From positions 6,990,001 through 7,022,000 of the forward strand of contig NC_010628.1 in the NCBI RefSeq assembly GCF_000020025.1: a stretch of DNA of 32,000 nt, given 5' to 3'. Under the pieces are notes generated by a model. It was given only the letters and a program-made list of their open reading frames with translations, was not told the DNA's origin and did no database searches. Position numbers and translations under genes: made by a program. This stretch comes from Nostoc punctiforme PCC 73102. Its GTDB lineage: Bacteria > Cyanobacteriota > Cyanobacteriia > Cyanobacteriales > Nostocaceae. This document shows, piece after piece, positions 925-28,700 of this stretch (position 1 is its first letter; every line of letters starts with the position of its first letter).

Positions 925-988
925 TATTACTTAGTTTTACCAATCATTTTCGTACCTTTATTGCATCACCCTATTCCCTCATCAGCTT

Positions 989-4557: not shown

Positions 4558-4587
4558 CAATAAATCATAGTCATTTATCCTACCTCT

Positions 4588-5345: not shown

Positions 5346-5445
5346 GGTGGAACTATTCGAGTAATAGTTTAATTATAAAGTGTGTGCCATATTGGGTAGA
5401 AATTGGATTCTAAAATACACTTTCTCATCACTCACCCTGCCTAGC

Positions 5446-8013: not shown

Positions 8014-8104
8014 GCCAATATAGTCACAAGATTTTAGATGTTGGATTATTAACCAACTGACTTCAATCATCTCAGAATAATCACCAGCAGTTCATAACCC
8101 TTGT

Positions 8105-10123: not shown

Positions 10124-10749
10124 AAATCAAGCATGAGAGTCAGGTAATGAGCTAGCCCATCAGCGAGTAATTGTTGACGCAAAGCTGATGGCACCGGAAC
10201 AGAACGAATTTGATAATTTCCTCTTGGGGACGTGGGTTGCAATAGACCCGCATTTACTAGCACTAGTAAGGTGTTGCTAGCAGCCTTTTTATAGGTGGAG
10301 TTTGACCATGCAGCCACAGTTGAATTTTGATCTCGCTTTCCTTCAAAGAAGGTTCGCAAGTCAGCAGTCGTTACGACATAATCAAAACCTTTAATTTTGT
10401 CCAGCAGGACTTCAGCGATGAGTTCGCGCAGAAGGCGGTGTTCTTGCAAAATCAGGAACAATATGGTGAATCGACGGGTATCAGGGTTACTAGTGGCAAT
10501 TAATTGAATATATTCCTCTGGCACTTGTTGAAGGCGTTTGAGAACAGTTTGTAGCGCCCGCTCACGAGAAACTTGGGAGCGTAGTTGAAATAAATCATCC
10601 ACCAATACCCGTTGCCGAATATCTTCCTGGGTTGCACCTTGATACATCAGTTCAGCAACTCGAAGGGTTTCAGTCAAAACAAAAGCGTGGTTAGTACGAG
10701 CAGCATAAGCCGTTTCAGTCATAGTAGTAACAGTAACAAAGACAGGCAA
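10120..10749 (-). CDS. BrxA-like (DUF1819-like) protein, convergent with brxL
   Basis: 209 aa. Size and sequence pattern resemble BrxA as I recall it (LxETLRVAELM...ATQEDIRQRVLVDDLFQLRS...ALQTVLKRL...FLILQEHRLLRELIAEVL...WSNSTYKKAASNTLLVLVNAGLL). Its stop overlaps the brxL stop by 4 nt. The call is from memory and has not been searched. Confidence 0.5.
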   Translation of the reverse strand: MPVFVTVTTMTETAYAARTNHAFVLTETLRVAELMYQGATQEDIRQRVLVDDLFQLRSQVSRERALQTVLKRLQQVPEEYIQLIATSNPDTRRFTILFLILQEHRLLRELIAEVLLDKIKGFDYVVTTADLRTFFEGKRDQNSTVAAWSNSTYKKAASNTLLVLVNAGLLQPTSPRGNYQIRSVPVPSALRQQLLADGLAHYLTLMLDF

Positions 10750-11265: not shown

Positions 11266-11307
11266 AAAAGCCAGCCATCAACTTTCTCAGGGCGGATGCT
11301 GGCTTTT
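11266..11307 (+). terminator. Terminator-like hairpin in the leader of the 11336 gene
   Basis: AAAAGCCAGC (11266-11275) pairs perfectly with GCTGGCTTTT (11298-11307) across a 22-nt loop. The GC stem is followed by a T-run. It lies downstream of TATAAT and about 30 bp upstream of ATG 11336. Confidence 0.4.
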
Positions 11308-11335
11308 GGCCCCCATATCACAGGAGACATATACA

Positions 11336-11893
11336 ATGTTAAAGCCTGTTAGCTACAAAACAGATCAACACAGAGCTTATCAACAAGCTTTAGATGATTT
11401 CGGCATCACAGAATTACTAGCAAAGCTCAACAACTACTCTGACGCAGACTTTGATAGCACTTGGATGCAACTCCAGCCGCAAGAAATAGAAAGTCTAGCT
11501 GCGATTCTGATTTCACAGTTAACTCACAGCATCAATGGTAAATTGATTGCCGCTTATCTCAATCTCATCCGCCACAATTACCAAGATATAGCCCCAGGCT
11601 TGATTAGCCTCAAATACCCAGACGCATCTATTCAGCTTCCCGCCAACTTTCCCGACGTAGCGAAGACACCCAGATTTTTATATGGCGATCGCTTGCGTTG
11701 GCTCTCTACCCAAAGCGATACTGACTGGGGTATTGTCATTGGTCGATTTTATAGCTTTGCTAGCGATCGCTGCTGCTGGAGTTGGTGCTACCTGATTTGG
11801 TTGAGCAAAGATAGCCGCAGTGCTGCTTGGACATCTGCCGATATTGCTTGGGAAGAGGATTTAGAACCAATCAGCGAGGAGACAAACTTATGA
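11336..11893 (+). CDS. Hypothetical protein (185 aa)
   Basis: The ORF track opens at TTG 11306. ATG 11336 is preceded by caggag (11321-11326) and is the likelier start. No motif recognised. The stop overlaps the next gene's start (ATGA at 11890-11893), which suggests translational coupling. Confidence 0.5.
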   Translation: MLKPVSYKTDQHRAYQQALDDFGITELLAKLNNYSDADFDSTWMQLQPQEIESLAAILISQLTHSINGKLIAAYLNLIRHNYQDIAPGLISLKYPDASIQLPANFPDVAKTPRFLYGDRLRWLSTQSDTDWGIVIGRFYSFASDRCCWSWCYLIWLSKDSRSAAWTSADIAWEEDLEPISEETNL

Positions 11894-12192
11894 ATCCTCA
11901 TCCACTCAAGCAGCGAGAACAAGATTTGATGCAATTCTATAGTTATTGTCAATTGGGAATAACTCCCAAGCAGTTTTACACCAAGTGGCAAGTGAACCAC
12001 GAAGAAATTGCTCAGATTTGCGATCGTTCCCTATCCACAGTTCGACGCTGGTTTGCTAGAGGTAAAAACTACCGCCGTCCCATGCCAGCCGATTTACGCC
12101 ACCTGGCACTAATGAATTTTTTGCTGGAACACTTTGAGGAGATTCCCGAAGAAGTGTTGCAGAAGCTTTGTTTTCCAGACAAGAGTGAGTAG
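11890..12192 (+). CDS. Small helix-turn-helix DNA-binding protein (100 aa)
   Basis: ATG 11890 overlaps the upstream stop. EEIAQICDRSLSTVRRWFARGKN is a classic HTH segment. The longer 11827 start in the track lies inside the upstream gene. Confidence 0.55.
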   Translation: MNPHPLKQREQDLMQFYSYCQLGITPKQFYTKWQVNHEEIAQICDRSLSTVRRWFARGKNYRRPMPADLRHLALMNFLLEHFEEIPEEVLQKLCFPDKSE

Positions 12193-12528: not shown

Positions 12529-12591
12529 ATCTTCCTGTTAACTGAAATTCTCACGCAGACGGAAACTTGCTCTGCCACATCCTTAATCGTC

Positions 12592-12785
12592 GAAATAGCA
12601 AATGCGTTCGCCGAAATAGCAAATGTGATCGCCGAAATAACAATTGTGATCGCCAAAATAACAAATGCGTTCGCCAAAATATCAAATGTGATCGCCGAAA
12701 TAACAATTGTGATCGCCAAAATAACAAATGCGGTCATTGAAATAACAATTGCGAACACCGAAATAACAAATGCAATTGCAAAATC
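12592..12785. repeat. 21-bp tandem repeat, 9 full copies (iteron-like array)
   Basis: Units start at 12592, 12613, 12634, 12655, 12676, 12697, 12718, 12739 and 12760. The consensus is roughly (g/a)aaata(a/g)caa(a/t)tg(c/t)g(a/t)tcgcc. Units 3 and 6 are identical, and triplets of units form a 63-bp higher-order repeat. There are no spacers. Confidence 0.9.
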
Positions 12786-12941
12786 AGTATATTGTCTGTT
12801 CGCAAGTAAAAAACACTCATCCACGAGCTTCTTTCATTGTCAAAAACACATCATTTGTGATGAAATTCTCCACTTTTCTGGAATTTAGAGCGTTAGTGTT
12901 GAATTATTTTCATGATCTAGTTGCGTCTCACGTCTTTACTT

Positions 12942-15900
12942 ATGAACGAACAGCGTCAGCAAGCTTATCTCAACCTTATTCGCAGCCTGTTAGATTCCCC
13001 TAGTGGTGAAGAATCAGAGATTTTAGCAGCAAACCAAGAGTTACTTGATGCTGGCTTTGTGCAGACGGTAGAAGCAGTAGCACAGATGTGTTCCCAACAC
13101 GGAGATGAGAATACAGCGAATTGGTTGCAAAGTTTGGCAATGCAACTAGGGGAAGCGTTGAATCTAGATAATAAAGTAGATTTGCAATCTCTCAGTGAGG
13201 AGGAGATACAGACATATTACCAATTCTTGATGCAGGTACTACAAGCAACCGCAGACAGTAGTGATAATTCCCAGGTAGTTTACCCCTTGCTGGCAAAGAA
13301 TACAGACAAACTTGACGGAGTGTTAGCAGAAATATTGCGTCGTTGGGGGACAAATACACTGGGGGAAGCGAAAGCAGATGAGGCGGAATACGTAGTACAA
13401 GTTATTGCCACATTTAGCAATCTAATTCAGCAATTCCCCTTGGGTAACAAAGCCAGTAATATGGAAATTGCTATCGCTGGCTATGAAGTCGCGCTGACTG
13501 TCTACACCAGAGAAGCTTTGCCTATTGATTGGGCAACGACGCAAAATAATCTGGCAATTGCCTACAGGGAGAGAATTAAAGGAGACAGGGCAGATAACAT
13601 CGAACAGGCGATCGCTGCTTTTATTGCTGCTTTAACTGTCTACACCAGAGAAGCTTTGCCTCAAGAATGGGCAATGACGCAAAATAATCTCGCTGCTGCC
13701 TATTATTCTAGAATTAAAGGAGACAGGGCAGATAACATCGAACAGGCGATCGCTGCTTTTATTGCTGCTTTAACTGTCAGAACTCCTGAAGCTTTGCCTA
13801 TTGATTGGGCAGCAACGCAAAATAATCTGGCAAATGCCTACAGCGATAGAATTAAAGGAGACAGGGCAGATAACATCGAACAGGCGATCGCGGCTTTAAC
13901 TCTTGCTTTAACTGTCAGAACTCCTGAAGCTTTGCCTCAAGAATGGGCAATGACGCAAAATAATCTCGCTGCTGCCTACAGGGATAGAATTAAAGGAGAC
14001 AGGGCAGATAACATCGAACAGGCGATCGCTGCTTTTACTGCTGCTTTAACTGTCTACACCAGAGAAGCTTTGCCTCAAGAATGGGCAATGACGCAAAATA
14101 ATCTCGCTGCTGCCTACAGGAATAGAATTAAAGGAGACAGGGGAGATAACATCGAACAGGCGATCGCGGCTTTAACTGTTGCTTTAACTGTCTACACCAG
14201 AGAAGCTTTGCCTCAATCTTGGGCAATGACGCAAAGTAATCTCGCAAATGTCTACAGGGATAGAATTAAAGGAGACAGGGCAGATAACATCGAACAGGCG
14301 ATCGCTGCTTGTACTGCTGCTTTAACTGTCTACACCAGAGAAGCTTTGCCTCAATCTTGGGCAACAACACAAAATAATCTGGCAAATGCCTACTATTCTA
14401 GAATTAAAGGAGACAGGGCAGATAACATCGAACAGGCGATCGCTGCTTTTACTGCTGCTTTAACTGTCAGAACTCCTGAAGCTTTGCCTATTGATTGGGC
14501 AGCAACGCAAAATAATCTGGCAAATGCCTACTATTCTAGAATTAAAGGAGACAGGGCAGATAACATCGAACAGACGATCGCTGCTTTTACTGCTGCTTTA
14601 ACTGTCTACACCAGAGAAGCTTTGCCTCAATCTTGGGCAATGACGCAAAGTAATCTCGCAAATGTCTACAGGGATAGAATTAAAGGAGACAGGGCAGATA
14701 ACATCGAACAGGCGATCACGGCTTCAACTGCTGCTTTAACTGTCTACACCAGAGAAGCTTTGCCTGAAAACCATGCAGAAACTTCGTTTGGACTGGGAAG
14801 AAATTACCAAGACGCAAACAAGTTTGACTTAGCATATAATACTTTTGAGTATGCCATTGCCACGGTAGAATCTTTGCGAGAAGAAATAGTATCTGGAGAG
14901 GAAAGCAAACGCAAACAAGCGGAACACTTTAACCGAGTTTATAGCAGCATGGTAGAAGTTTGCAGGAAATTAAATAAGATTACCGAAGCAATTGAATATG
15001 TTGAACGTAGTAAAACCCGCAATTTAGTTGAACAAATCCTCGAACGCGACTCTAAAACAATCTTCCCTCCAGAAGTATTCACTCAATTAGAAAAATACAG
15101 GGATGAAATAGCCGTAGGACAATATAAAATCCAAAATGGCAAAGCTGAAAATCTAGAAGTCCTAGCACAACATCTCCAAGAATTGCGACAGCAGCGTAAT
15201 GAATTACAAAACCAATACTTACCTGTTGGTTATGGTTTTAAGTTTGACTCATTCCAGCCCACTTTAAATGAGCAGACAGCCATTATTGAGTGGTATGTTC
15301 TCAACGATAAAATTCTGGCGTTTATTTTCGCAAAACAAGGAGAGATAACAGTTTGGCAATCTCAACCAGAAGAACAACAAGCCTTGTATGATTGGAGAAA
15401 TCAATATTTGCAGAATTACTACGATCAAAAAGACCAATGGCGAAATAACTTAGGGAAAGCACTCAAAGAATTAGCCTCAATTCTGCACATTGATGAAATA
15501 TTAAACCAGATACCAAAGCACTGCGATAAACTCATCCTAATTCCCCATCGATTCCTGCATTTATTACCTCTTCATGCACTTCCAGTCAATCACAATGCTG
15601 AAAATTCGCGCTGTCTTCTAGATTTATTTACTGGTGGTGTGAGTTATGCACCCAGTTGTCAACTACTGCAACAGGTACAACAGCGCAAACGACCTAATTT
15701 TCAATCCCTGTTTGCCATCCAAAACCCCACAGGCGATTTAAACTATACAGATTTAGAAGTACAAGTTATTCAAAGCTACTTTAACACTGCTAATGTCCTG
15801 AAAAAAACAGCAGCGACACTGACAGCTATTAATAATTCCGACTTAAATACTTACCATTGCGCCCACTTTAGCTGTCACGGGTATTTTAACTTAACAAATC

Positions 15901-16496
15901 CCGGTAAATCAGCCCTAATTTTGGCAGATGCGCCTATCGCAGACACACCAACAAAACCCAACTCCGAACGTTATCTGAACGTGCGAGCAGGGGAAACCCA
16001 CGATTTAGACAAATGCCTTACTCTAGATAAAATCTTCACTCTCAAATTAGAAAAATGTCGCCTCGTCACCCTTTCCGCTTGCGAAACTGGATTGATTGAT
16101 TATACAAATACTAGCGATGAATATATAGGTTTACCTAGCGGTTTTCTATTAGCAGGTAGTCCCAATGTCGTTAGTTCTCTTTGGACAGTGGATGACTTAT
16201 CGACCAGCTTTTTAATGATTAAATTCTACGAAAACTTAGTCAAACTTGATAACCTGGAAACAGGAGATATTGCCATAGCCCTGAAACAAGCTCAAAACTG
16301 GCTGCGAAATCTGACTATTGAGGGATTAGACATATTTCTGGAGGAACACAAAACCCAGATTGAAAAAGTCCTTGCTCAACTAAGAGTAGGACAACGCATC
16401 ATATTTCAAGAATCTTTGAAACTAATCAAGCAACGTCAACCCCTACCTTTCGCAAATCCCTACTACTGGGCTGGATTTACAGCTTCTGGACTTTAA
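12942..16496 (+). CDS. TPR-repeat CHAT-domain (caspase-like) protease
   Basis: ATG 12942 (MNEQRQQAYLNLIRSLL) is preferred over TTG 12921. There are about ten 46-aa TPR-like repeats. The C-terminal CHAT domain carries a His/Cys dyad in the contexts AHFSCHG (about 15860-15880) and LVTLSACETG (about 16065-16094). Confidence 0.85.
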   Translation: MNEQRQQAYLNLIRSLLDSPSGEESEILAANQELLDAGFVQTVEAVAQMCSQHGDENTANWLQSLAMQLGEALNLDNKVDLQSLSEEEIQTYYQFLMQVLQATADSSDNSQVVYPLLAKNTDKLDGVLAEILRRWGTNTLGEAKADEAEYVVQVIATFSNLIQQFPLGNKASNMEIAIAGYEVALTVYTREALPIDWATTQNNLAIAYRERIKGDRADNIEQAIAAFIAALTVYTREALPQEWAMTQNNLAAAYYSRIKGDRADNIEQAIAAFIAALTVRTPEALPIDWAATQNNLANAYSDRIKGDRADNIEQAIAALTLALTVRTPEALPQEWAMTQNNLAAAYRDRIKGDRADNIEQAIAAFTAALTVYTREALPQEWAMTQNNLAAAYRNRIKGDRGDNIEQAIAALTVALTVYTREALPQSWAMTQSNLANVYRDRIKGDRADNIEQAIAACTAALTVYTREALPQSWATTQNNLANAYYSRIKGDRADNIEQAIAAFTAALTVRTPEALPIDWAATQNNLANAYYSRIKGDRADNIEQTIAAFTAALTVYTREALPQSWAMTQSNLANVYRDRIKGDRADNIEQAITASTAALTVYTREALPENHAETSFGLGRNYQDANKFDLAYNTFEYAIATVESLREEIVSGEESKRKQAEHFNRVYSSMVEVCRKLNKITEAIEYVERSKTRNLVEQILERDSKTIFPPEVFTQLEKYRDEIAVGQYKIQNGKAENLEVLAQHLQELRQQRNELQNQYLPVGYGFKFDSFQPTLNEQTAIIEWYVLNDKILAFIFAKQGEITVWQSQPEEQQALYDWRNQYLQNYYDQKDQWRNNLGKALKELASILHIDEILNQIPKHCDKLILIPHRFLHLLPLHALPVNHNAENSRCLLDLFTGGVSYAPSCQLLQQVQQRKRPNFQSLFAIQNPTGDLNYTDLEVQVIQSYFNTANVLKKTAATLTAINNSDLNTYHCAHFSCHGYFNLTNPGKSALILADAPIADTPTKPNSERYLNVRAGETHDLDKCLTLDKIFTLKLEKCRLVTLSACETGLIDYTNTSDEYIGLPSGFLLAGSPNVVSSLWTVDDLSTSFLMIKFYENLVKLDNLETGDIAIALKQAQNWLRNLTIEGLDIFLEEHKTQIEKVLAQLRVGQRIIFQESLKLIKQRQPLPFANPYYWAGFTASGL
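13464..14766 (+). repeat. Intragenic 138-bp tandem repeats: 9 very similar copies plus 1 degenerate copy
   Basis: The landmark ggagacagggcagataacatcgaacaggcgatcgc recurs with a 138-bp period, for example at 13581 and 13719. Units encode EQAIAAFTAALTVYTREALPQEWAMTQNNLAAAYRDRIKGDRADNI with only a few substitutions. Confidence 0.9.
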
Positions 16497-16861
16497 GCAC
16501 CAGATTCGGGGACTTTACAAAACTTTTTCGCACCCAGTTTAAACACGCAAATACTGAGTGCAGTTGCTATACCAGGAGGAATGCAAATACCAATAGCGAT
16601 CGCTTCTATCGCTGGAGCAAGCAATCCAGATTCCAAGGCTTCTCTAACTTCTTCCTGACAGAAAAATTGGCGGGATTTTTCCAACCAATCATCTAATCCT
16701 CTATCTGCTTCCTGTGCAGTTTCCCGCATAACCAGCAGTGGAACGGCATCGTCTAAATAACCTTCACACTCTTCGATAGTATCCAAAGCTACTAAAGCCT
16801 GGGGATTATCTGCCAATTCACGGCGAAATTGACTAATTTCCTCTGGTGTAACAGTAATCAT
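16493..16861 (-). CDS. Hypothetical acidic protein with a hydrophobic C-terminal segment (122 aa)
   Basis: The ORF is on the same strand as tniQ and 210 bp downstream of it. Its stop overlaps the CHAT gene stop by 4 nt. The C-terminal LLAPAIEAIAIGICIPPGIATALSICVF looks like a membrane helix. No family recognised. Confidence 0.4.
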   Translation of the reverse strand: MITVTPEEISQFRRELADNPQALVALDTIEECEGYLDDAVPLLVMRETAQEADRGLDDWLEKSRQFFCQEEVREALESGLLAPAIEAIAIGICIPPGIATALSICVFKLGAKKFCKVPESGA

Positions 16862-16970
16862 CTAGTTTTAACCAGTAAATAAATACACAAAAATCTTGAG
16901 TAATTATACATCTAACGCCGAATCCAGAGATGTGGTGCTGACACGATATCAATAGTAGAAGTAATTTTGG

Positions 16971-17002
16971 AGTGCGATGTCTACGACGGGCTACGCCTAC
17001 GC
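16971..17002 (+). repeat. Dispersed short repeat, copy 2 (AGTGCGATGTCTACGACGGGCTACGCCTACGC)
   Basis: It pairs with 12496-12528 in direct orientation. It sits in the 210-bp gap between tniQ and the 122-aa ORF. Confidence 0.5.
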
Positions 17003-17070
17003 CCATTTTCGACAACCAGAAAAATTCACCTAGATACTTGGTTAATTCACACATTTTTCTGGTGTTATCA

Positions 17071-17574
17071 TTAACTCTTCTGTTGCTTTGCCATTTCCGC
17101 AAACAGAGTCCTACATCTATGACAACACCCATCTTCCCACAGGGCAGGCATTTTAAAAGGTGCTTGACAATTTGGACACTTCGCTAAAATTTTGAGTTGA
17201 TGGCGATCGCACTTCCACACCGACTTATACTGCCACTCAATTCTGTGACAAGGCGCTTCAGCATAACAAGCCCCACACAAGCGAATTGGCTCATGCTGCA
17301 TTCCCACTCCAGCAGGTGGTAACATCTGGGCTAACCTTTGGGCATCCACTTCTACTACAGATGCGATCGCTTCCAACTCTTTTTGACTAGGGCGAGGGTT
17401 AAAATGAAATCTTTCCCACCGTGCCACTACAGCACCAATCCCAGCTAAACCACCCAACCCAGCAGGAGATAAATGGTTAGCACGTCTAAACCGACCTAGA
17501 AAATGACTTAGGCTTTCCCCTGGATAGGGTTCTATAATAAAAAGCCAAGGCTTAACATCTGGTGTTGTCATCAC
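17071..17574 (-). CDS. tniQ: TniQ, small type V-K CAST-type target selector
   Basis: 167 aa. DVKPWLFIIEPYPGESLSHFLGRFRRANHLS is the TniQ N-terminal motif. A Cys-rich zinc ribbon is present (CGACY...C..H, CPNCQ...CCHRC). The start overlaps the tnsC stop (ATGA). Length and sequence match my memory of ShCAST TniQ. Confidence 0.85.
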   Translation of the reverse strand: MMTTPDVKPWLFIIEPYPGESLSHFLGRFRRANHLSPAGLGGLAGIGAVVARWERFHFNPRPSQKELEAIASVVEVDAQRLAQMLPPAGVGMQHEPIRLCGACYAEAPCHRIEWQYKSVWKCDRHQLKILAKCPNCQAPFKMPALWEDGCCHRCRTLFAEMAKQQKS

Positions 17575-18401
17575 TTGTACTCTTTCGCCACTTCCTGTAA
17601 AACAGCCTTATCAATCTTCTTAAATCCCTTAGATAAAGAACGAATCGCTGTTTCCCTGAGAATCTCATCCAGGCGGCCAATGTAACCTTCAGTTGCTGAT
17701 GTGAGAATCCGCAGCATATCCTTGCTAGTTAAATTAGAAGAAACAGGCAGTTTCAAAACTCTATCTTCCCAGGCTTGCACAGTATCTTGAAAATCTTTCC
17801 CCGATAACTTGCCGAAGCGATGACAAGCCCGAAAGCGGTTATAGACTTGTTCATCTCGCTTGATTACTGCCTCCAAGCGGTCTGTTCCCACCAATACCAC
17901 AGCAATTCCTAACTTGTCATAAATATCTCGCACCTCAGCAAACGTCTCAGGTTTGAGGCGATCAGCTTCATCAATAATCAGCATTTCTACCCCACACCCC
18001 TTGAGTACCTCCATCGCCCTCCCACGAAAATCAGAAACAGTTCCCTTTGTTGCTCGAAACTTAAGATACTCAATCATCTCCTTGAATAAATCCTTAGAGC
18101 CGCATTTTTGCGGAGGCTGAATATAAACTACAGGCACAATCGGGGGTCGCCCAACTTCTTGCTGTGGCTTTTGCCTGTACCTATAGGCATCACAGGCAAC
18201 CGTCTTGCCAGTCCGTGATTCCCCAACGACTCGACAAGATTGCCGTGCTTTACGCTTGCCATCCAACCAATCATGGAGAGTTTTTACCTGCTGTAAAGGC
18301 ACAATACTCTTACCCTTGAGACGAGCAATTTCAGCTTGCAACCACTCATCATCTGGTTTTACCCCACCCAACTGCTTGGCGATCGCTTGAGCTTCTGTCA
18401 T
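17571..18401 (-). CDS. tnsC: TnsC AAA+ ATPase, Tn7-like and type V-K CAST-type
   Basis: 276 aa. Walker A is GESRTGKT and Walker B is LIIDEADRL. The N-terminus MTEAQAIAKQLGGVKPDDEWLQAEIARLKGK reads like ShCAST TnsC as I remember it. Confidence 0.9.
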   Translation of the reverse strand: MTEAQAIAKQLGGVKPDDEWLQAEIARLKGKSIVPLQQVKTLHDWLDGKRKARQSCRVVGESRTGKTVACDAYRYRQKPQQEVGRPPIVPVVYIQPPQKCGSKDLFKEMIEYLKFRATKGTVSDFRGRAMEVLKGCGVEMLIIDEADRLKPETFAEVRDIYDKLGIAVVLVGTDRLEAVIKRDEQVYNRFRACHRFGKLSGKDFQDTVQAWEDRVLKLPVSSNLTSKDMLRILTSATEGYIGRLDEILRETAIRSLSKGFKKIDKAVLQEVAKEYK

Positions 18402-18404
18402 TGT

Positions 18405-20159
18405 TTAAAACCCGTATTCTTCACGAAGTTGTTCATAGTCCCACACTTCCATGTCTTCGTATTGGGAGTGAACCGTTTCTGTAGATTCCACTTCATCTGG
18501 TTCAACTACTTGGGAAGACAAGGATTCAGTTTTACTTTCGTCAACCCCAGCAGATCGCAAAACCGCCTGTTCCAATTTTTGACGCTCCTTACGGCTTTTC
18601 TTGGTTGCGACAAGAGCATCGCGGTCAACAACTTCTTGCAATAATGATTGGTTACTGATAGTTTTGCCTGCGTTACGGAGTCTGCGACTTGCTGCCTCAG
18701 CCTCATCTAATGCCAGTTGCTCTGTCTCCAAACCTTGAGCGTGAGCGCGGGTGAGAAATACTTCCTGATTGTTTTCCTGGCGATAAACCAAAATTGTTGT
18801 AATGTCTCTGGGGTCAAATCTTAAGTTGACAGTTTCCCCTGCATAACCTGCCAGATATTCTCCTCGATACATCAAATTCTGGAACTGCAAGCAACCACCT
18901 CTTTGTACAGTACGCCGTGACTGCTTCATTAAACAGATATCCAAATCTCGTTCTGGTATTGGTACTGGTACTGTGGGCAATCCTGCTTCCCAACGCTCAA
19001 AGCGAGTTTGATCGCCCATCCGAGCATCAATACTTTGGTTGTAACGGTCAACGATATAGCGTATAAGTAGCTGTTCTAGTTCCCTTAGAGTGAGCCTTGC
19101 GTCTTTTTCCGCATCTTTTGGGCGTTCCTGCACATTAGATCCGGTGTACCCAGGAAGCGTTGAAAATAGTTGGTCATTCAATGTTTTGAAAGGACGTTCT
19201 ACTACTCCACCTTCAGAAGGGCGATCGCGTAAATGGCAGACAAATCCTAATTGCGCTCCAATCTGACTCAAGTGGTTAGAGCGAAAGTCTTTACCGCCAT
19301 CAGTATAAAAATGTTCTGGCTTACCATAGGTTCCCCACTCACAATGCAGTTTGTACTCGAAACCGTACTGTTTGGGTAGAATTGCATGGCGTAACGCTAA
19401 TGCTACTACCCCAGAACTAGGTGCATCAAAGCCCAAGTTGATACCCATAATGCAACGAGAGTAAGTATCAATTACTGTTGTTAGCCAGGGACGACTTAGT
19501 AATTCACCATGTTGATCCACGAGCAACACATCTACGCGGGTATGGTCACATTGCCAAACATGGTTACTGTAATCAACTGATAAATCTTTCCCTTCACGGG
19601 TTTTAACTGAAAGCGTAGTTCCTCTCCATCCAGGGCTACGAATACTCTTGGCTTTTTCTTGCTTTTCTAATATGGGCGCTAATACCCGTAACACGGTTTT
19701 GTAATTGGGTGGCTTAGAGTCCTTTAACTCACGGGCTTTAGCCTCGACTCTGAGAGCAACTTGTTTAGGGGTCATACGTTTACTACCCTTGTTACCCTCG
19801 TTGTAGGTTTTGGTAATGAATTTTTCCCAAAACTCACCAATGCGATGTTTTCCTTTATCAGCCCTACCTGTTTGAGTGAGTCCGACTAAGCCATCGTGTT
19901 CCCAGTTTTTCACCAACCTTTGTACCGTTCGTAACGATACACCTAGTTTCTCTGCTGCTTCCCGCAACTTTTGTCCATAGGTTGTGCGATCGCAGGGTTC
20001 TAGTAAACTTTGGATTACCTCTAGCTTGAGTTGGGCTTCCTCTGAGAGTTGTGTGGCAATTACATTCTTCTCAAGAGTTATATCGCTTTCTCCTAGTAAG
20101 CCTTCTATAGGAATTGCCGAGGGATGAACAGCTAAATCAGGATTTTGCTGACTGTTCAT
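18405..20159 (-). CDS. tnsB: TnsB DDE transposase (Mu/Tn7 family), type V-K CAST-type
   Basis: 584 aa. It has an N-terminal HTH (LRTVQRLVKNW) and an rve-type core with VWQCDHT and FYTDGGKDF. The N-terminus MNSQQNPDLAVHP and the length match my memory of ShCAST TnsB. Confidence 0.9.
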   Translation of the reverse strand: MNSQQNPDLAVHPSAIPIEGLLGESDITLEKNVIATQLSEEAQLKLEVIQSLLEPCDRTTYGQKLREAAEKLGVSLRTVQRLVKNWEHDGLVGLTQTGRADKGKHRIGEFWEKFITKTYNEGNKGSKRMTPKQVALRVEAKARELKDSKPPNYKTVLRVLAPILEKQEKAKSIRSPGWRGTTLSVKTREGKDLSVDYSNHVWQCDHTRVDVLLVDQHGELLSRPWLTTVIDTYSRCIMGINLGFDAPSSGVVALALRHAILPKQYGFEYKLHCEWGTYGKPEHFYTDGGKDFRSNHLSQIGAQLGFVCHLRDRPSEGGVVERPFKTLNDQLFSTLPGYTGSNVQERPKDAEKDARLTLRELEQLLIRYIVDRYNQSIDARMGDQTRFERWEAGLPTVPVPIPERDLDICLMKQSRRTVQRGGCLQFQNLMYRGEYLAGYAGETVNLRFDPRDITTILVYRQENNQEVFLTRAHAQGLETEQLALDEAEAASRRLRNAGKTISNQSLLQEVVDRDALVATKKSRKERQKLEQAVLRSAGVDESKTESLSSQVVEPDEVESTETVHSQYEDMEVWDYEQLREEYGF

Positions 20160-20208
20160 AATGCGAAGCTTTTTTATAAAAACATATTGTTATTCTACTT
20201 AAACAGAA

Positions 20209-20421
20209 AGCGACAGTCAATTTGTCATTATGAAAATACACAAAAGCTTTTTTATCTCTGATGAAGCGACAGCTAATTTGTCACTATTACCCAAAATGAC
20301 AGCTAATCTGTCACTGTCAAGATGTTATCCTAATACTACTAAAACGCTGTAACCTATACCGAGCAAGATTTTAATGGATGACATTAATTTGTCTCGACGA
20401 CATATAATTAGTCACTGTACA
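20209..20421 (-). mobile_element. Transposon left end with five TnsB-type binding repeats, terminating in TGTACA
   Basis: About 20-bp repeats of the form gacag(c/t)(t/c)aat(t/c)tgtcac lie at 20209-20230, 20265-20286, 20295-20316, 20378-20398 and 20395-20421. The minus strand reads TGTACAGTGACTAATTATATGTCGTCGAGACAAATTAATGTCATC from the terminus. This closely parallels the ShCAST left end as remembered. Confidence 0.8.
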
Positions 20422-20425
20422 TTTT

Positions 20426-20456
20426 TGTACAATGACAAATAATTAGTTAATGTACA
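20426..20456 (+). mobile_element. Second, oppositely oriented Tn7-like end remnant
   Basis: TGTACAATGACAAATAATTAGTTAATGTACA starts 4 bp (tttt) from the first terminus. Positions 20411-20436 form a near-perfect palindrome, gtcactgtaca-tttt-tgtacaatgac. I see only one or two degenerate binding repeats. Confidence 0.55.
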
Positions 20457-20506
20457 ATAATTTTTGCATACTTAAAAACAGTAAAGTTCGGTTAAGAGAA
20501 AATATT

Positions 20507-20575
20507 GAATACTTTGGTGATAAAGGATATCAAGGAATTCAGAAAGTTCATGCTAAAAGTAGGACATTTTTACTC
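20507..20575 (+). pseudogene. Fragment of a DDE transposase gene (IS4/IS5-like DKGYQG motif)
   Basis: It translates in frame to EYFGDKGYQGIQKVHAKSRTFLL with no start and no upstream ORF. The DKGYQG(I) motif is typical of IS5/HARBI-like DDE transposases. It is short, so this is only a remnant. Confidence 0.35.
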
Positions 20576-20682
20576 AGGTTGATTAAGCGGACACGATTTC
20601 AACTAAAAACCAATACGGTTTAGTTAGCCATAAAAACCTTAAGTTCTGTAGCGACTGTCTTAAAAGTCAAGCGATCGTTAAC

Positions 20683-20830
20683 AAAAAACCGGTACTCTTA
20701 ACATTGACGCAACTGTGGAACGCTGCGCTAGATTCTGCGGTGGCTGGTACGGGCAAAAAGACTTGTGGCTCTTGGTTAAGATGGTAGCAGCCCGCACCAG
20801 CCACTCCGCTTCGCCGCAGAATCTTCCCCC
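20683..20830 (-). ncRNA. Candidate IS-encoded structured RNA (bridge or seek RNA-like)
   Basis: In the minus sense, GAUUCUGCGG (plus-strand 20814-20823) pairs with CCGCAGAAUC (20731-20740). UGGCUGGU pairs with ACCAGCCA (20796-20803 with 20741-20748). GCGGGC pairs with GCCCGU, including one G-U pair that exists only in the minus sense. There is a 10-nt bulge and a 35-nt apical loop. A second hairpin lies at 20708-20727 and a U-run at 20683-20688. The extent and the 5' end are guesses. Confidence 0.3.
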
Positions 20831-20939
20831 AGTTGCTGGATTTCCCATGGAGATAAAAAAGAGCATAAAAAGTTGACCCAAATGCCACAATGGGATCATC
20901 GGGGGGACTATTCCAAAGTATAAAAACGTTGAGTTGTGA

Positions 20940-21902
20940 TTAAGCGTTGGCAATGGGTTGTAAGTTTTCAGTTACACGCCAAGGCAAATTATCTCGAACC
21001 ATTGCATTTAGAATAACTAACATTTTATGAACGCAAGCAGTGAGAGCTAATTTTTTCGATTTACCACGTTCGATAAGGCGCTCATAAAAGGCCTTGATAA
21101 CCGGATTATGAACCATAGCAACAACAGCACCCATATAAAGAGTGGCACGAACATGAGCGCGACCGCCATTAATCATGCGCTTACCTTTGTGTTGACCACT
21201 ATCATGATTAATTGGTGCAACACCAACTAAGCGAGAAATTTGTTTGGCAGTGAGTTGACCCAGTTCTGGTAAATCCGAAACCAGAGTTGTCGAAATTACT
21301 TGACCAATACCAGGAGTACTTTTAAGTAAATTAACTTTATCAATCCATTGAAGATTGTTTTGCGTCAATTCGGCAATTTTTTGATTGAGTTGTTTGAGGT
21401 GTTCTTCCAGGTATTCAATATGAGCCTCAATATCTGCCAAGGCTTGGCCACGAGTGAGTGAGCGGCGATTCTTTTCGGCTGTCTGCATCTCCACTAATTG
21501 TCGTCTGCGACTAATTAATTCCGATAATTGACGCGCCGTTTCGGATTGAATGGCTAAAACTTGGGGTTTCATCGCTTCGCCAAAATGTGCCAATATTTGT
21601 GCATCAATAGCATCAGTTTTGGCCAGCTTACCCGTAGCTTTAGCAAAATCTCGTCCTTGACGGGGATTAATTAATGCTACTGGTAAAAGTGCAGCTTGCA
21701 ATTGGATTACTAGTTCAGTTTCTAATCCTCCGGTTGCTTCTAGTACAATCAGATTTAAACTATAGGACAAGAGTAGCTTCACTAGATTTGATATTTCTGA
21801 TTCTGTATTTGCCACAATCATAGCTTTACCCAGAGGACGGATATAAACATCTAATGTGGCTTTACTCACATCAATACCTACCCATTGAGCAATATTTTCC
21901 AT
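20940..21902 (-). CDS. IS110-family transposase/recombinase (DEDD RuvC-like domain plus Tnp domain)
   Basis: 320 aa. Family signatures present are WVGIDVSKATLDV, VLEATGGLE, KTDAIDAQILA, LKSTPGIGQVISTTL, INHDSGQHKGKRMINGGRAHVRATLYM and FYERLIERGKSKKLALTAC. Confidence 0.9.
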   Translation of the reverse strand: MENIAQWVGIDVSKATLDVYIRPLGKAMIVANTESEISNLVKLLLSYSLNLIVLEATGGLETELVIQLQAALLPVALINPRQGRDFAKATGKLAKTDAIDAQILAHFGEAMKPQVLAIQSETARQLSELISRRRQLVEMQTAEKNRRSLTRGQALADIEAHIEYLEEHLKQLNQKIAELTQNNLQWIDKVNLLKSTPGIGQVISTTLVSDLPELGQLTAKQISRLVGVAPINHDSGQHKGKRMINGGRAHVRATLYMGAVVAMVHNPVIKAFYERLIERGKSKKLALTACVHKMLVILNAMVRDNLPWRVTENLQPIANA

Positions 21903-22124
21903 ATTTCACTCTCACGGATTGTGTTTGTTATAGTTGATTCTCATCCCCTTGATTACACTCATCCTTGCACGATACGGACTGTATCATCTAAATATCAGTA
22001 TTGAAATTTTTGCCCCTGGCGACTGTTCGAGTTCTGTCAAAGAGATTGTTGTAGTGACCCATGCTACAAAGCGGTCTTTCTTGACCAAGGTTGGGACGGT
22101 CTACTACTATTTCTAAGATACAAG

Positions 22125-22154
22125 GTTGGGTTGAGGAACGAAACCCAACATTTT
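22125..22154. repeat. Hairpin GTTGGGTT-n9-AACCCAAC followed by ATTTT
   Basis: A perfect 8-bp stem (22125-22132 with 22142-22149). The sequence resembles a hairpin repeat I recall as common in cyanobacterial genomes. It might act as a terminator downstream of pstS, but the T-run is on the plus strand only. Confidence 0.3.
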
Positions 22155-22232
22155 CATAGCTTTGTTTGGCTGCGCTTTGCTTCACCCAACCGACAATTTT
22201 TCTGAACTGAACCGTATTGAACTAAAAACTAG

Positions 22233-23327
22233 TTATTCTGCAATTCTGTTTGCAGCAGATTGTACTTGAAGCACAACTTTTTTAGATAAAGGAATATATC
22301 CGAGTTCCAAACTGGATTTTTGCCCTTCAATCAAAGCCCAATCAATAAATTTCCTCAGCGCTTCACCTTTGGCTAGGTTTGGATATTGCTGATAAGTTAA
22401 AAGCCAGCTATAAGTAACGATGGGATAAGACTGTGAACCTGTAGGATCGTTGATAAAAGCAATTAAGTTATCGGTAGGTAACTTCACTAACTCCAAGGTT
22501 TGAGCTACAGATTCTGGTGTGGGCGTAATATAATTACCAAATTTATTTTCCAAAGCAGCCACAGGAAGTTTATTTTGTTTGGCGTAGATGTATTCTACAT
22601 AGCCAATAGCTCCTGGGATCTGTTGAACTAAGGCAGTAACACCTTCGTTACCCTTTCCACCAATTCCTACTGGCCATGCTACAGCTTTACCTGCTGCAAC
22701 TTTGCTTTTCCATTCTGGACTTATAGCACTTAGATGTTGCGTCAACACACTTGTAGTTCCACTACCATCAGTGCGGTATACAACCTGAATCGGTAGATTG
22801 GGCAAATTTACGCCTGGATTAGCTACAGCTATTCTCGGATGATTCCAATTCGTAATTTTTCCGAGAAAGATATCTACATAAACTTGGCGTGATAGCTTTA
22901 AACCATTTGGCGGATTGACTGGAGGTGACTGGGGGGCGGACGCGAGGTTGTAAGCTAGCACTATGGAACCAGCAGTCATGGGTAAAGCAATCACTCCCCT
23001 TTTTATCTTAGTTGCTTGTTCATTTGTAATTCCCACATCACTAGCTGCAAAGTCTACAGTACCTTCAATCAGCTGTTGCACTCCAGCGCTGCTTCCTATA
23101 GCTTGATAGTTAATTTCCACATTGGGATTTTGCTGGTTGTAATCTGAAAGCCAGCGTTCGTACAAAGGCGCAGGAAAACTTGCCCCAGCACCAACAAGAG
23201 AAACACGATTGATTTTTTTATTATCGGCAGTACAAGAAACAATACTCAACAATATAGCGATTACGGGTAGTAGGCAAACCCGTCGTTTAAATTGAAGTTG
23301 AGCAGATATACAAAACTTTAGTTCCAA
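22233..23327 (-). CDS. pstS: Phosphate ABC transporter substrate-binding lipoprotein (PstS family)
   Basis: 364 aa. It has a signal peptide with a lipobox (LLSIVSC). GAGASFPAPLYERW...YQAIGSSAGVQQ...VDFAASD is the PstS/PBP signature. Confidence 0.85.
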   Translation of the reverse strand: MELKFCISAQLQFKRRVCLLPVIAILLSIVSCTADNKKINRVSLVGAGASFPAPLYERWLSDYNQQNPNVEINYQAIGSSAGVQQLIEGTVDFAASDVGITNEQATKIKRGVIALPMTAGSIVLAYNLASAPQSPPVNPPNGLKLSRQVYVDIFLGKITNWNHPRIAVANPGVNLPNLPIQVVYRTDGSGTTSVLTQHLSAISPEWKSKVAAGKAVAWPVGIGGKGNEGVTALVQQIPGAIGYVEYIYAKQNKLPVAALENKFGNYITPTPESVAQTLELVKLPTDNLIAFINDPTGSQSYPIVTYSWLLTYQQYPNLAKGEALRKFIDWALIEGQKSSLELGYIPLSKKVVLQVQSAANRIAE

Positions 23328-23445
23328 TGCTTAATAATTTTCCAATCTGTAGCTGTGTGGGCGTAATTAATTGTAAAACGAGGAAAATAAATTTGAAATA
23401 CAAAGGTACGCAAAGTTTTCAGTTATGCTATGCGTACCTTTACAT

Positions 23446-24843
23446 TTAAACTTCAATAGCCGTCTCTTTCTCCTCAATTTTTGGCTCTGAACTAAGCCGA
23501 TCTAAAATTTCTAAAACCTCTTGTTCAAAAGCAACTTGGGCGCGATTAGTTTTGCCACCAACATATAAGAGATCGCCTTTTTGCAATGCCCATATTTGTG
23601 AATGAGAAAAGTAACTCATCACCACACCCAACATTAATAAACCAAACCCTGAGTAAACAATTGGTATGCCTGGATCGGCTTTAATTTGTAAGCCAGTGCT
23701 ACCAATAACATCCAGAATTTTCAGCTTCACGCCATTGACTTGAGTGGACATACCAGCACGGACTGTATCAACTAATTTACCATTGGGATCATAAATTAAT
23801 ACCATCCCTTGCAAGTCTTTGGCTAGTAAAGAAACACCCTCGCTTAAATCCGGTTTAGTAGGAACCCAGGTTCCCCAAATGCGCCCTTGTCCTTTGGTGT
23901 TCAATAGCGCCATTGGTAGTTGAAAAATTGGGCTATTGTTAAATTGGACGCGAACACCTGCAATTCCCCAATCAGTTTGGTAGAAGGTTATGCCCCGATA
24001 GCGCAGAGGCTCGTTGACAAAAATCTTCTTGTGGTCAACTTCCTCTCCCTGCTTATTTAAGACAGACATATCGGAATAAAATTGATCGATGCCGCCAGAT
24101 GGAGTGTAATCAATCCAAAAACGATTGACGCGCACAGACCAATCTTTCGAGACTTGGGCGGCTAATGGGCCAGCATCGACAATATTTGTGACTTGAAATG
24201 TATCGCCACTAGCAACCATTTCCTGTGCCATAAACCCAGTCATCGCCCCCCAAATTCCCCCTAGCAAAATAGCGACGATGCCAATATGAACGATAATTGG
24301 GCCGATGCGTCCGACTATTCCTTTGCGGGCATAGAGGATATTTTCTTTTTCTCGATCTGGAAAAATTTTATAGCGGCGTTTCTGTAATAGTTGGCTGAGA
24401 GAATTTAGAGAACCATTATCTAGTTCTGCACTTAAAGCTAATTTTTGAAATTGCCGTGGTTCTTCGTAATATTTCCAGCGTTGGGCAGCTTTTAAAGCTG
24501 GTAACTGACGGGTAAAAGAACAAGCAGTTAAGCTAGTACCAAATAAGATGAGTAATGCTAGAAACCACCAGGTACGATATACATGGTCTAACCCAACTAC
24601 CTGAATTACCTTCCAAGTTAAGAAACCAAATAAAGCTGGATGTTCTGGGTAGTTAGCCTGATAAAATGCGGGTGACTGACCTTGCTCAATTACAGTACCA
24701 GTGGAGCTAAAGATTGCAATCAATAGCAGTAGTGCGATCGCTAGTCGTAAGTTAGTCAGTACGGGCAAAAGCTCTTGCCGTAAGAACTGCCCAGGTATTG
24801 CCCACCATTTTAATTCTTTGGACGCTGAATCTTCTAAAGTCAT
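23446..24843 (-). CDS. ccs1: Cytochrome c biogenesis protein Ccs1/CcsB (ResB family)
   Basis: 465 aa. The N-terminal region [36 protein letters not shown]...[23 protein letters not shown] is typical of ResB/Ccs1. It is adjacent to ccdA. Confidence 0.85.
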
Positions 24844-24873
24844 TACGTGTAAAATCTAACAAAGGTATTGATA

Positions 24874-25614
24874 TTAAAAATTGCCGAGGGGAATCCGAGA
24901 AATTAAGGAAAATACACCGAATCCTACCAACAGCGCCCCGCTAACTGGGTTAATCCAACCAGACCAGCGACGCAATTCTAGTAATTTTTTAATTGAAGCT
25001 GTAAAAGTACCCGCCAAAATCAATGGTGCTACATAACCGGCTGTGTAAGAAAGTAGCAAAACAGCGCCTAAAATTAAGTCTTGTGTATTGGCAATCCAAC
25101 CCAGTAAACTGGCTAAAACAGGCGTGCTACAAGGGGATGCGACTAAGCCGAAAGTCAGACCCAGTAAATAAGAACGCAATCCTATAGGTAAATCTTGCGA
25201 AATCCAATTCGTTTCGCCCAAGGATGGAAATTGCAGAGGTAGTGCTTCTAGTAAGTTCAGCCCCATGAGAATGGCAATAATACTGACGATAATCGGCAAA
25301 CCAATTCCCACTTGTCCATAGACTTTTCCTACCAAAGCTGCTATTATACCCATCCCTGCTAACGTAGTTGCTAATCCTAAAGCAAACCAAGTTGATTGGG
25401 CAGCTGCTTGCAAGCGGTTTTTGGCTTCATAACCACCGATGTAACCAATGGTAATTGGCAGCATAGAAAGCATACAGGGTGTAAGACTCGTGAGCAAGCC
25501 GGCTACAAAGATGATACCAACACTGACCACGCTAAGGTGTGCCAGTTGGTTAGAAACGAGGCTGTTGGCAAATTGTTCTAGTTGGTAAATTTGGGTTTGC
25601 AGGTTATCAAGCAT
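24874..25614 (-). CDS. ccdA: Cytochrome c biogenesis thiol-disulfide transporter CcdA (DsbD-like)
   Basis: 246 aa polytopic membrane protein. It carries the two conserved Cys contexts LTSLTPCMLSMLP and LVASPCSTPVL. Confidence 0.85.
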   Translation of the reverse strand: MLDNLQTQIYQLEQFANSLVSNQLAHLSVVSVGIIFVAGLLTSLTPCMLSMLPITIGYIGGYEAKNRLQAAAQSTWFALGLATTLAGMGIIAALVGKVYGQVGIGLPIIVSIIAILMGLNLLEALPLQFPSLGETNWISQDLPIGLRSYLLGLTFGLVASPCSTPVLASLLGWIANTQDLILGAVLLLSYTAGYVAPLILAGTFTASIKKLLELRRWSGWINPVSGALLVGFGVFSLISRIPLGNF

Positions 25615-25795
25615 GGGGAGTTTCTGAGCGGGAAATGCTTACTCTGCTTGAATTGTAGCTTATTTTTGTCTGTAGAGTCAGCAGAAGTGATTATCCAAAG
25701 CTGATATCATCTAAATTTCATCTGGCCAAAGAAATGTATCTAAAATACAATTAAGCTCGAATTATCTCGGAAGAAGCACGGCTGGAGCATTTAGC

Positions 25796-28700
25796 ATGAT
25801 GATTGCATTACCCGGATTTAAAATTGTCACTTTGTTAAAAGCAGGGGTAAAAGCAGTTATATACCGTGGAATCAAGGTTAAAGACCAGTGTCCGGTAATT
25901 ATCAAAGGGCTACGTTCAGAACAGTGTACACCCAATAATATTGAACAACTCAAACATGAGTATGCGATCGCTCAAAAGTTAAATATCGCCGCCGCAGTCC
26001 AGGTTTACGCCTTAGAGATGCACCAGGGAATCCCTTATTTGATTATGGAGGATTTTGAGGCGCGATCGCTTGACCAGTTGCTAGACCAATTTCAAGAACC
26101 TGTTTCGTTCTTAAAGATTGCTATTGAAATCACCAGCAAACTCGCACAAATTCACACTCATCACATTGTCCACAAAGATATTAAGCCACAAAATATCTTA
26201 GTTAACCTGGAAACCAATCAGGTTAAAATTGCCGATTTTGGAATTGCTACTTTCATTCCATATCAGCAGCAAATAGTTAGTAGTTCCAGTCGTATTGAAG
26301 GCAGTTTACCTTATCTTTCACCTGAACAAACCGGGCGGATGAATCGAGGGATTGACCATCGTAGCGATTTGTATTCACTGGGAGTCACCTTTTATGAGAT
26401 GCTCACAGGTCAGCTACCATTTCAAGGCAAAGACCCATTAGAGTGGGTGCATTGTCATATTGCCCAATCTCCGCCATCTCCGAAAAAGCTCAACTCTGAT
26501 ATTCCCCAAATGCTCTGTGACATCATCATCCAATTGTTGTCAAAGGTTGCAGAACAGAGATATCAAAGCGCTTTAGGTTTGCAATTTGATCTGGAACGGT
26601 GCTTAAAGCAATTGGAGACAACCGGAGAAATTCAATCCTTTGTTTTGGGTGAGCAAGATATCTCAGAGCGCTTTCAAATTCCCCAAAAATTGTATGGGCG
26701 AGAACAAGAAATTGCCAAGCTTCTGCAAGCATTTGAGCGAGTTGTTACCCAAGGGAAACCAGAAGTTGTGTGCGTCTCTGGCTATGCTGGGGTTGGTAAA
26801 TCTTCTCTAGTGAAGGAGATTCACAAGCCCATTGTGAGAGAACGCGGGGTTTTTATCTGTGGTAAGTTTGACCAGTACAAACGAGATATACCTTATTCCA
26901 CTATTGTTCAAGCTTTTCAAACACTCGCTCGACAAATTTTAACGCAGCCTGAAGATCAACTTGCCAATTGGAAAAAGCGAATACAAGCAGCATTAGGAAA
27001 TAATGGTAAATTAATCGCAGATGTAATTCCAGAAGTTGAATTAATCGTTGGAGAACAGCCACCTATACCAGAGTTGGGGCCTGCCGAATCTCAAAACCGA
27101 TTCAATTTAGTGTTTCAGAATTTTATCAGTGTCTTTGCTCAAAAAGAGCATCCACTCACTGTTTTTTTAGATGATATGCAGTGGGCAGACAGCGCTACTT
27201 TGAATTTAATTCAAAGCGTCATGACTGAATCTAATATCCAGTATCTCTGCTTCATTTTAGCCTATCGAAATAATGAAGTAGATGTTGTGTATCCCTTTAG
27301 TTTGATGATAGGGAAGGTTTGCCAGTATGGAGCAAGAATAACTGAAATTCTTCTTACTCCCTTGAATCTTGTTTATATAAATCAGTTGATTGCTGATACA
27401 TTGCATAGTTCAGCAGAACGAGTAGAATCTCTGGCTCAATTGATTATCCAAAAAACTGATGGGAATCCTTTTTTTGTCAATGAATTTTTGAAAACATTAC
27501 ATCAAGAAAATCTGCTAATTTTTAACCTCTCTCAATCCTCCCTTTCTAAGGAGGAAAGTAGAGGGGAATGGCAATGGGATCTAGCTCAGATTGAAGCCCA
27601 AGGGATTACAGATAATATTGTCAGTTTGATGATTGGGCGGATGCAAAAACTGCCAACCGCAACTCAAGAGATGCTTAAGTTAGCCTCCTGTATTGGTAAT
27701 CGTTTCGATTTAAAAATTTTAGCGGTCGTTGGTGAACAATCTATTGAAGAAACAGCAAACGCACTTGTTGAAGCAATTTTAAGAGGATTAATTATCCCCA
27801 TAGAGTCAGATGAAACTGCCCATAAAAACTATCGTTTCTATCACGATCGAGTTCAGCAAGCTGCATACTCATTAATTGCTGATGAATCGAAGTCGGCAGT
27901 TCACCTGAGAATTGGGCGACTTTTGCTGAAGAATGCTAGTTATGAAAAAGTTAACGAGCAAATCTTTGATTTAGTCAATCAACTCAATTTCGCAGTTGAT
28001 CTGATTATTGAACAGGCAGAAAAAGATGAATTGATTCGGTTGAATTTAATTGCTGCTAAGAAGGCAAAAGCTTCTACAGCCTACACTCCTGCTAAAAAGC
28101 TTTTTAGCATTGCCATGAATCTTTTAGCTGAAAATGCCTGGATTGAACAATATGAACAAACATTTACCCTATTCAGAGAACTAGCTGAGTGTGAATTCTT
28201 AACGGGAAATTTAGGACAAGCGCAAGAATTATTTGAAATCCTATTCAGTAAAGCAGCATCCTATATGGATAAATCTAATATTTATATGCTGCAAATCAGA
28301 CTCTATCAAGTTGCAGGGAGGTATGAAGAAGCGCTGATATTGGGATTAGAAGCTTTAAAACTTTTTGGGGTGACATTCCCTGATACAAATGAGGAAGTGC
28401 AAGCTGCGATCGCAATTGAAAAAAACCAAGTACTAACCAATCTAGGTAATAGACAAGTATCTGATTTAATTAATTCTATAGTAATCCAAGATCCAAATAT
28501 TAAAACAGTCATTAGTCTGTTGACGACTTTGGGACCACCTACTTATCTTGGTAGACCCGATCTCTTTCCCTTAGTCGTACTTAAGGCAGTTAACTACTCA
28601 CTCAAGTTTGGCAATACGGAAGATTCCTGTTTTGCTTACAGCATGTATGCCATGTTATTGGTTTCCATCTTCCATGATATTCCTACAGGGTACGCATTTT

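Follow-up and report, generated by a model that had tools for sequence, protein, structure and literature searches.

The 32,000-nt stretch analysed here, positions 6,990,001 to 7,022,000 of NC_010628.1 from Nostoc punctiforme PCC 73102 (henceforth the window), carries one end of a mobile element that, judged by its sequence and that of its relatives, is very probably an ordinary CRISPR-associated transposon (CAST) of type V-K, closely related to ShCAST, with a type 1 bacteriophage exclusion (BREX) system as cargo and a guide module lying beyond the left edge of the window. ShCAST is reportedly the type V-K CAST of Scytonema hofmanni UTEX 2349 presented by Strecker et al. in 2019, and is represented by structures 7n3o, 7svw, 7m99, 7n6i and 8ea3. 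Read from the right of the window on the minus strand, the parts of the element follow in the order right end (RE), tnsB, tnsC, tniQ, cargo, a divergent cvkR, cas12k, trans-activating CRISPR RNA (tracrRNA) and CRISPR array. The window itself holds only the transposase end and the defence-gene cargo, and the apparent loss of the guide module is a consequence of where the window was cut. An earlier, sequence-only reading of this DNA had recognised the transposase module and, finding no guide module behind it, had offered two explanations: an element longer than 20.4 kb whose guide module lay off the left edge, or a Cas12k-less descendant of a CAST. The first has held up and the second has not.

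Transposase genes and right end

The genes tnsB, tnsC and tniQ are tightly packed open reading frames (ORFs) on the minus strand that adjoin one end of the element and read inward, and the proposal of a ShCAST-like module encoding proteins of 584, 276 and 167 aa proved correct in coordinates, Pfam domains and identity to ShCAST (87.0-95.9%). The DDE transposase gene tnsB (18405-20159, 584 aa) encodes Pfam Mu-transpos_C, rve and N-terminal helix-turn-helix (HTH) domains, and its product matches ShCAST TnsB (7svw) from first to last residue with 95.9% global identity. It carries the expected acidic-residue contexts, CDHT, TDGGKD and PSEGG, which we take to be those of the DDE triad. The product of tnsC (17571-18401, 276 aa), an AAA+ filament ATPase with Pfam TniB/AAA_22, matches ShTnsC (7m99) end to end with 87.0% global identity and contains both GESRTGKT and IIDEAD, presumably its Walker A and Walker B motifs, and that of tniQ (17071-17574, 167 aa; Pfam TniQ) matches ShTniQ (7n6i) over its full length with 89.8% global identity. 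No TnsA-type Pfam domain was found in ORFs of at least 80 aa in window positions 1-20421, nor in the gene table of the contig, described below, that extends the window leftward.

Upstream of tnsB, repeat-family, inverted-pair, motif and direct sequence inspection delimit the transposon end at 20210-20421 (minus strand), where the five TnsB-type repeats of the sequence-only reading are confirmed as 23-nt sites at 20210-20232, 20268-20290, 20298-20320, 20376-20398 and 20399-20421, the last being terminal and closing with TGTACA at 20416-20421. Across the window the TnsB-site motif matches seven times where 2.4 matches would be expected; six of the seven lie within 20212-20449. That reading had called this an intact left end; intact it is, but in the published naming of V-K CASTs, RE denotes the end next to tnsB and left end (LE) the one on the tRNA/CRISPR side, and the layout seen here agrees with that of the described RE (Ziemann et al., 2023, PMC9938897).

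The absence of a guide module and of a second end from the window was likewise upheld. No tRNA was found in the window by ARAGORN and no match by an Rfam scan; tblastn and blastn with queries from the same lineage recovered no trace in it of Cas12k, MerR/CvkR, tracrRNA or CRISPR repeat; and motif and TGTACA scans in either orientation revealed no second cluster of TnsB sites, the stretch between tniQ and BREX included, where the sequence-only reading had allowed that an end might have been missed. As that reading also maintained, the only tandem arrays between tniQ and base 1 are a 21-bp repeat (12586-12773) and a 138-bp repeat (13497-14765). An ORF of 672 aa was considered as the missing effector and rejected, since Pfam and PADLOC identify it as BrxL.

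Guide module beyond the left edge

Exact-sequence look-up of the PglX protein retrieved six contigs from sequencing runs (SRR8435xxx/SRR6394275), the longest of which, L001 (11,025 bp), is identical to window positions 1-4549 at 4549 of 4549 bases and reaches 6476 bp farther left than the window; the other five (L002-L006) are identical to it in all overlaps. Over the same genes, no more than 91-96% identity to L001 is seen in the closest other genomes, and on this ground of sequence identity we take L001 to represent the strain of the window or a clone of it. Window coordinates of its features, obtained by subtracting 6476 from L001 coordinates, are negative to the left of base 1.

The leftward extension that the sequence-only reading had proposed as a check was run on this contig and encountered a MerR_1 gene, a Cas12k profile match, a tracrRNA and the first 30 nt of a CRISPR repeat, all within a guide module that lies 3.5-6.5 kb left of window base 1. 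Beyond the start of brxC (-2615, plus strand) and brxB (-3259 to -2612, plus strand; PADLOC and Pfam) stands cvkR (-4000 to -3548, L001 2476-2928, plus strand), whose 150-aa product has a Pfam MerR_1 domain and is 81% identical to ShCAST CvkR; the gene is divergent from cas12k, in the position given by Ziemann et al. (2023, PMC9938897). The neighbouring cas12k (-6000 to -4081, L001 476-2395, minus strand) encodes a protein of 639 aa that scores 978 bits with the NCBIfam V_Cas12k profile (cut-off, 150 bits) and aligns over residues 1-639 with ShCas12k (7n3o) at 84.5% identity. Like ShCas12k, it has GVSLG in what we assume to be the place of RuvC motif I. In the 475 nt that follow cas12k, the alignment with the tracrRNA, leader and first repeat of ShCAST holds column for column, with only a few substitutions in the tracrRNA region; it places a predicted tracrRNA on the minus strand directly downstream of cas12k (about -6244 to -6026, L001 about 450-232) and, beyond it, the first 30 nt of CRISPR repeat 1 (-6446 to -6475), inside which L001 ends, as expected when a de Bruijn assembly meets a repeat array. 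By sequence, all the protein genes are intact, as are the RE, the predicted tracrRNA and the opening 30 nt of the array.

These genes bear directly on the second of the two explanations, a V-K CAST descendant reduced to tnsB-tnsC-tniQ and one end, which would select targets through TniQ alone or by untargeted TnsC-driven insertion and would, if true, be a natural Cas12k-less descendant of a CAST. Its appeal comes from 32 kb of DNA lacking cas12k, a MerR gene, tracrRNA, a repeat array and a second end, and it can also point out that the link between L001 and the window is 4549 bp of perfect identity and not the source contig itself. Yet a contig 100% identical over those 4549 bp runs straight into cvkR, cas12k, tracrRNA and CRISPR repeat 1, most of what the sequence-only reading had said would make this an ordinary, if large, V-K CAST, with the remaining array and the end supplied by relatives; the same collinear layout recurs in three related genomes; and members of the family typically have such a distance between tniQ and cas12k. 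For the Cas12k-less explanation to hold, the genome of the window would have to part from L001 immediately beyond base 1 and carry no guide module there; we regard this as scarcely credible, and the explanation itself as having almost nothing left to commend it.

Collinear relatives and the tRNA-proximal end

The far side of the ordinary V-K CAST proposed here is reconstructed from three relatives. A Cas12k protein scan of reference genomes yielded 79 loci, among which those of Nostoc sp. WHI (L007), Nostoc sp. KVJ20 (L008) and Nostoc sp. P12646 (L009, a metagenome-assembled genome) are collinear with L001 and the window through tracrRNA, cas12k, cvkR, brxB, brxC and pglX at 91-96% DNA identity, with Cas12k proteins 95-96% identical to that of L001; the DNA fetched for the three stops short of their tnsB ends, and the comparison thus covers one side of the element. 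Their arrays consist of 7-10 copies of GTGGCAACAACCCTCCAGGTACTGGGTGGGTTGAAAG, called CRISPR-DR15 by Rfam (L007 12366-12831, seven repeats; L008 11119-11803, ten; L009 12045-12655, nine), and are followed by a degenerate repeat, a truncated repeat GGGAGGGTTGAAAG and an anchor spacer, AGAGCGCTACGTTGACAT, which is invariant in the three and equals, exactly and in the sense orientation, the anticodon arm of tRNA-Val(GAC) directly after a GTT protospacer-adjacent motif (PAM). The LE then comprises five near-contiguous TnsB sites and a TGTACA, with tRNA-Val(GAC) located 5, 6 or 8 nt farther on and a distance from PAM to transposon end of 58-61 nt. At least nine of the fetched loci use this same anchor and the same tRNA-Val(GAC), an arrangement of homing by anchor (delocalized) CRISPR RNA (crRNA) that has been described for V-K CASTs (Ziemann et al., 2023, PMC9938897).

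By analogy with these relatives, the present element would be completed by a truncated repeat and its anchor spacer of 17-18 nt, an LE and tRNA-Val(GAC), and its LE would fall at about -7090 to -7380, giving an estimated 27.5-27.8 kb from RE to LE. Such a size would be normal, because native ShCAST spans 26.7 kb (coordinates 4865812-4892528) and AnCAST 25.0 kb (24,963 nt; Ziemann et al., 2023, PMC9938897), and as the sizes of these two elements indicate, it is nothing unusual in the family for tniQ and cas12k to lie more than 20 kb apart; the present element is not especially large. The remaining repeats, anchor crRNA, LE and tRNA site of this strain are deduced from the three relatives, and the element would presumably be active.

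Two further observations concern the behaviour of these elements. Among those with identical anchor spacers (L007 13005-13016, L008 about 12045-12057, L009 about 12897-12911, and also L017, L020, L029, L074 and L077), the gap between the TGTACA of the LE and the 3' end of tRNA-Val varies from 4 to 9 nt, and this variation suggests repeated and independent homing to tRNA-Val, rather than one inherited insertion. The arrays of L007, L008 and L009 have no spacer in common, which, in elements that are 91-96% identical, suggests active spacer turnover, although the element has no cas1/cas2 and hence no adaptation genes of its own. For none of these spacers was there a match in the window or in the fetched loci. 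The compact relative L029 carries its two ends within a single locus, but the 5 bp beside one end differ from those beside the other, and no target duplication could be deduced from it.

Right flank and probable fossil ends

Beyond the RE, four T residues follow position 20421 and lead into a relic transposon terminus of 31 bp, TGTACAATGACAAATAATTAGTTAATGTACA (20426-20456, strand not assigned), detected as the fourth copy of the repeat family, as part of an inverted pair, and by TGTACA and motif scans. It starts 4 nt beyond the RE, outside the element, and consists of one degenerate (sixth) TnsB terminal site bounded by two further, inverted TGTACA motifs; its sequence fits a fossil terminus left by an earlier CAST that used this attachment site, and the present element would have inserted against it. 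Similar fossils occur elsewhere, in that a terminal TnsB site, with or without TGTACA, lies immediately 3' of tRNA-Val(GAC) at CAST-free Nostoc sites (L088 8690-8727, L092 about 7590-7625, L095 about 725-761 and L096 about 820-857, and also L051 and L083, minus strand), preceded in L088, L092, L095 and L096 by the conserved flank GGGTAAAGTCACA. From their sequence and placement we read these sites as scars left by CASTs that once occupied them. Were a new CAST to home to one of these fossil-bearing sites, its RE would come to lie directly against the fossil, a configuration matching that at window positions 20421-20456.

Farther to the right, about 20470-20620 in frame +1 encodes a C-terminal fragment of an insertion sequence (IS) transposase (containing YFGDKGYQGIQKVHAKSRTF), followed by an intact gene for an IS110-family transposase of 320 aa at 20940-21902. 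The genes pstS, resB and ccdA at 22233-25614 constitute chromosomal context, as does an open frame of more than 2095 aa (25715-32000) that continues off the right edge and encodes a multidomain sensor with Ser/Thr kinase, AAA_16/STAND, three GAF, PAS and HisKA domains.

Several points weigh against an ordinary and complete V-K CAST at this site. L001 is a sequencing-run assembly that is tied to the window by sequence identity only, and neither it nor other collections yielded the array of this strain beyond the first 30 nt, its anchor crRNA, its LE or its flanking tRNA: the junction of leader and repeat 1 had no exact-pattern match in JGI metagenome contigs and only an unrelated transposase match in a plasmid collection, and the DUF1636 protein encoded beyond tRNA-Val in Nostoc sp. 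WHI, used as a query for the far flank, led to clusters of which six members were looked up, all from other strains or samples and none from the runs that contain L001-L006, although they did provide tRNA-Val sites that lack adjoining CAST genes and bear relic ends. On the other side, the RE is flanked by IS debris and IS110, and the right flank (20422-32000) has no similarity to the fetched Cas12k-bearing loci or to four DUF1636 loci in which that gene has no CAST genes next to it (L088-L091). The comparison with an empty site that the sequence-only reading had suggested gave no informative match among the fetched loci.

The same observations lend some colour to a decayed, immobile CAST, one whose protein genes and RE are intact but in which loss or rearrangement, caused for instance by IS elements active nearby, has struck the array, anchor crRNA or LE and left a fixed BREX island. 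The LE side was not recovered for the strain of the window, the IS transposase fragment, IS110 and relic terminus beside the RE bespeak local turnover, and relic termini without a CAST do exist at tRNA-Val in other Nostoc. Against this, all five proteins are full length and have their conserved motifs; tracrRNA, leader and first repeat show no damage and keep the register of ShCAST; and the array, anchor and LE are retained in all three closest relatives. Decay is thus improbable in our judgement, and an ordinary V-K CAST whose guide module lies beyond the window accounts far more readily for what was found.

Cargo

About 21 kb of cargo separate tniQ from cvkR. Most of it is the type 1 BREX system, identified with Pfam and PADLOC, whose in-window part occupies positions 1-10749, mostly on the plus strand, and whose set is complete when the window and L001 are combined (brxA, brxB, brxC, pglX, pglZ and brxL). 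The window begins with the 3' part of brxC (1-924, plus strand; the rest is on L001), and continues with pglX (989-4525, plus), xisI/xisH (4588-5345, minus), pglZ (5380-8013, plus), brxL (8105-10123, plus, 672 aa) and brxA (10120-10749, minus). The order is atypical, with brxA inverted after brxL instead of leading and the opposite-strand xisI/xisH separating pglX from pglZ. At 4523-4556, where each of the six public contigs stops, there is a tandem repeat of 7 nt (TAATTCG, 4.9 copies). Tn7-like transposons, cyanobacterial ones included, have been recorded with BREX as cargo.

The remainder of the cargo lies between BREX and tniQ. Two ORFs of 195 and 121 aa (11306-12192, plus strand), the second with a weak HTH that is not of the MerR type, are followed by the gene for a TPR-CHAT protein of 1191 aa (12921-16496, plus strand; Pfam CHAT and TPR_10/12), the TPR region of which corresponds to the 138-bp tandem repeat mentioned above. 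Just upstream of this gene is the 21-bp repeat, ATCGCCGAAATAACAAATGCG, in nine copies. The TPR-CHAT protein has a weak, sub-threshold similarity to type III-E Csx29 (69 bits against a cut-off of 300). Directly after tniQ, the ORF list contains two small frames of 99 and 122 aa (16493-17132, minus strand) with no match in Pfam, PADLOC or NCBIfam, the former overlapping the 3' end of tniQ by 62 nt.

Comparison with known systems

ShCAST has the same gene set in the same order as the present element, and besides the transposition proteins, Cas12k and CvkR compared above, the two share a nearly identical tracrRNA, a TGTACA at the tip of the RE and a similar size (26.7 kb versus an estimated 27.5 kb), and very probably also a 37-nt repeat ending in GTTGAAAG and a TGTACA at the tip of the LE. 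They differ in host genus, the genomes closest to the present element being those of Nostoc; in location, ShCAST being placed beside tRNA-Leu(TAG) and the relatives of the present element homing to tRNA-Val(GAC); and in cargo, since the 10 kb of ShCAST cargo that were compared show no relation to that of the present element and the match by BLAST stops at cvkR. The CASTs of Nostoc sp. WHI, KVJ20 and P12646, BREX-carrying and collinear, belong to what is effectively the same element lineage, but they reside in different strains and their spacer sets share nothing with each other. AnCAST of Anabaena sp. PCC 7120 can be likened to the present element by gene order, since it exemplifies the V-K architecture of tRNA, LE, anchor with truncated repeat, array, tracrRNA, cas12k, divergent cvkR, cargo, tniQ-tnsC-tnsB and RE (PMC9938897); its cargo, too, consists of defence genes, although these are restriction-modification and toxin-antitoxin genes, not BREX.

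Proposed mode of action

In ShCAST and AnCAST, a nuclease-dead Cas12k with tracrRNA:crRNA binds a target beside a GTN PAM, TniQ caps a TnsC-ATP filament, and TnsB places the element, with its LE leading, about 60 nt downstream of the PAM; where TnsA is missing, replicative transposition is expected. By analogy with ShCAST and AnCAST, Cas12k of the present element, nuclease-dead and loaded with tracrRNA:crRNA, would bind its target next to a GTN PAM, a TnsC-ATP filament capped by TniQ would form there, and TnsB, occupying its repeated sites in the two ends, would integrate the element some 60 nt downstream, the LE lying closest to the target, presumably by replicative transposition because there is no TnsA. 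The anchor crRNA would direct homing to the tRNA gene and the array spacers insertion into other DNA; CvkR would repress cas12k, tracrRNA and tnsB; and BREX, as cargo, would make the host resistant to phage. Of this scheme, the literature on V-K CASTs, including PMC9938897, covers tRNA homing, repression by CvkR and the order Cas12k-TniQ-TnsC-TnsB, and the other steps are proposed by analogy.

Significance

The main value of this analysis is one of correction, in that what looked like the natural loss of a guide module is an artefact of the position of the window's left boundary. The natural variants of TnsB, TnsC, TniQ, Cas12k and tracrRNA that it brings to light could be of minor use for ShCAST engineering. 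For the biology of the family, the element represents one more V-K CAST of the ShCAST clade, 85-96% identical to the reference proteins and equipped with a complete BREX system, and adds a little to the existing picture of CASTs as vehicles of defence islands in Nostoc.

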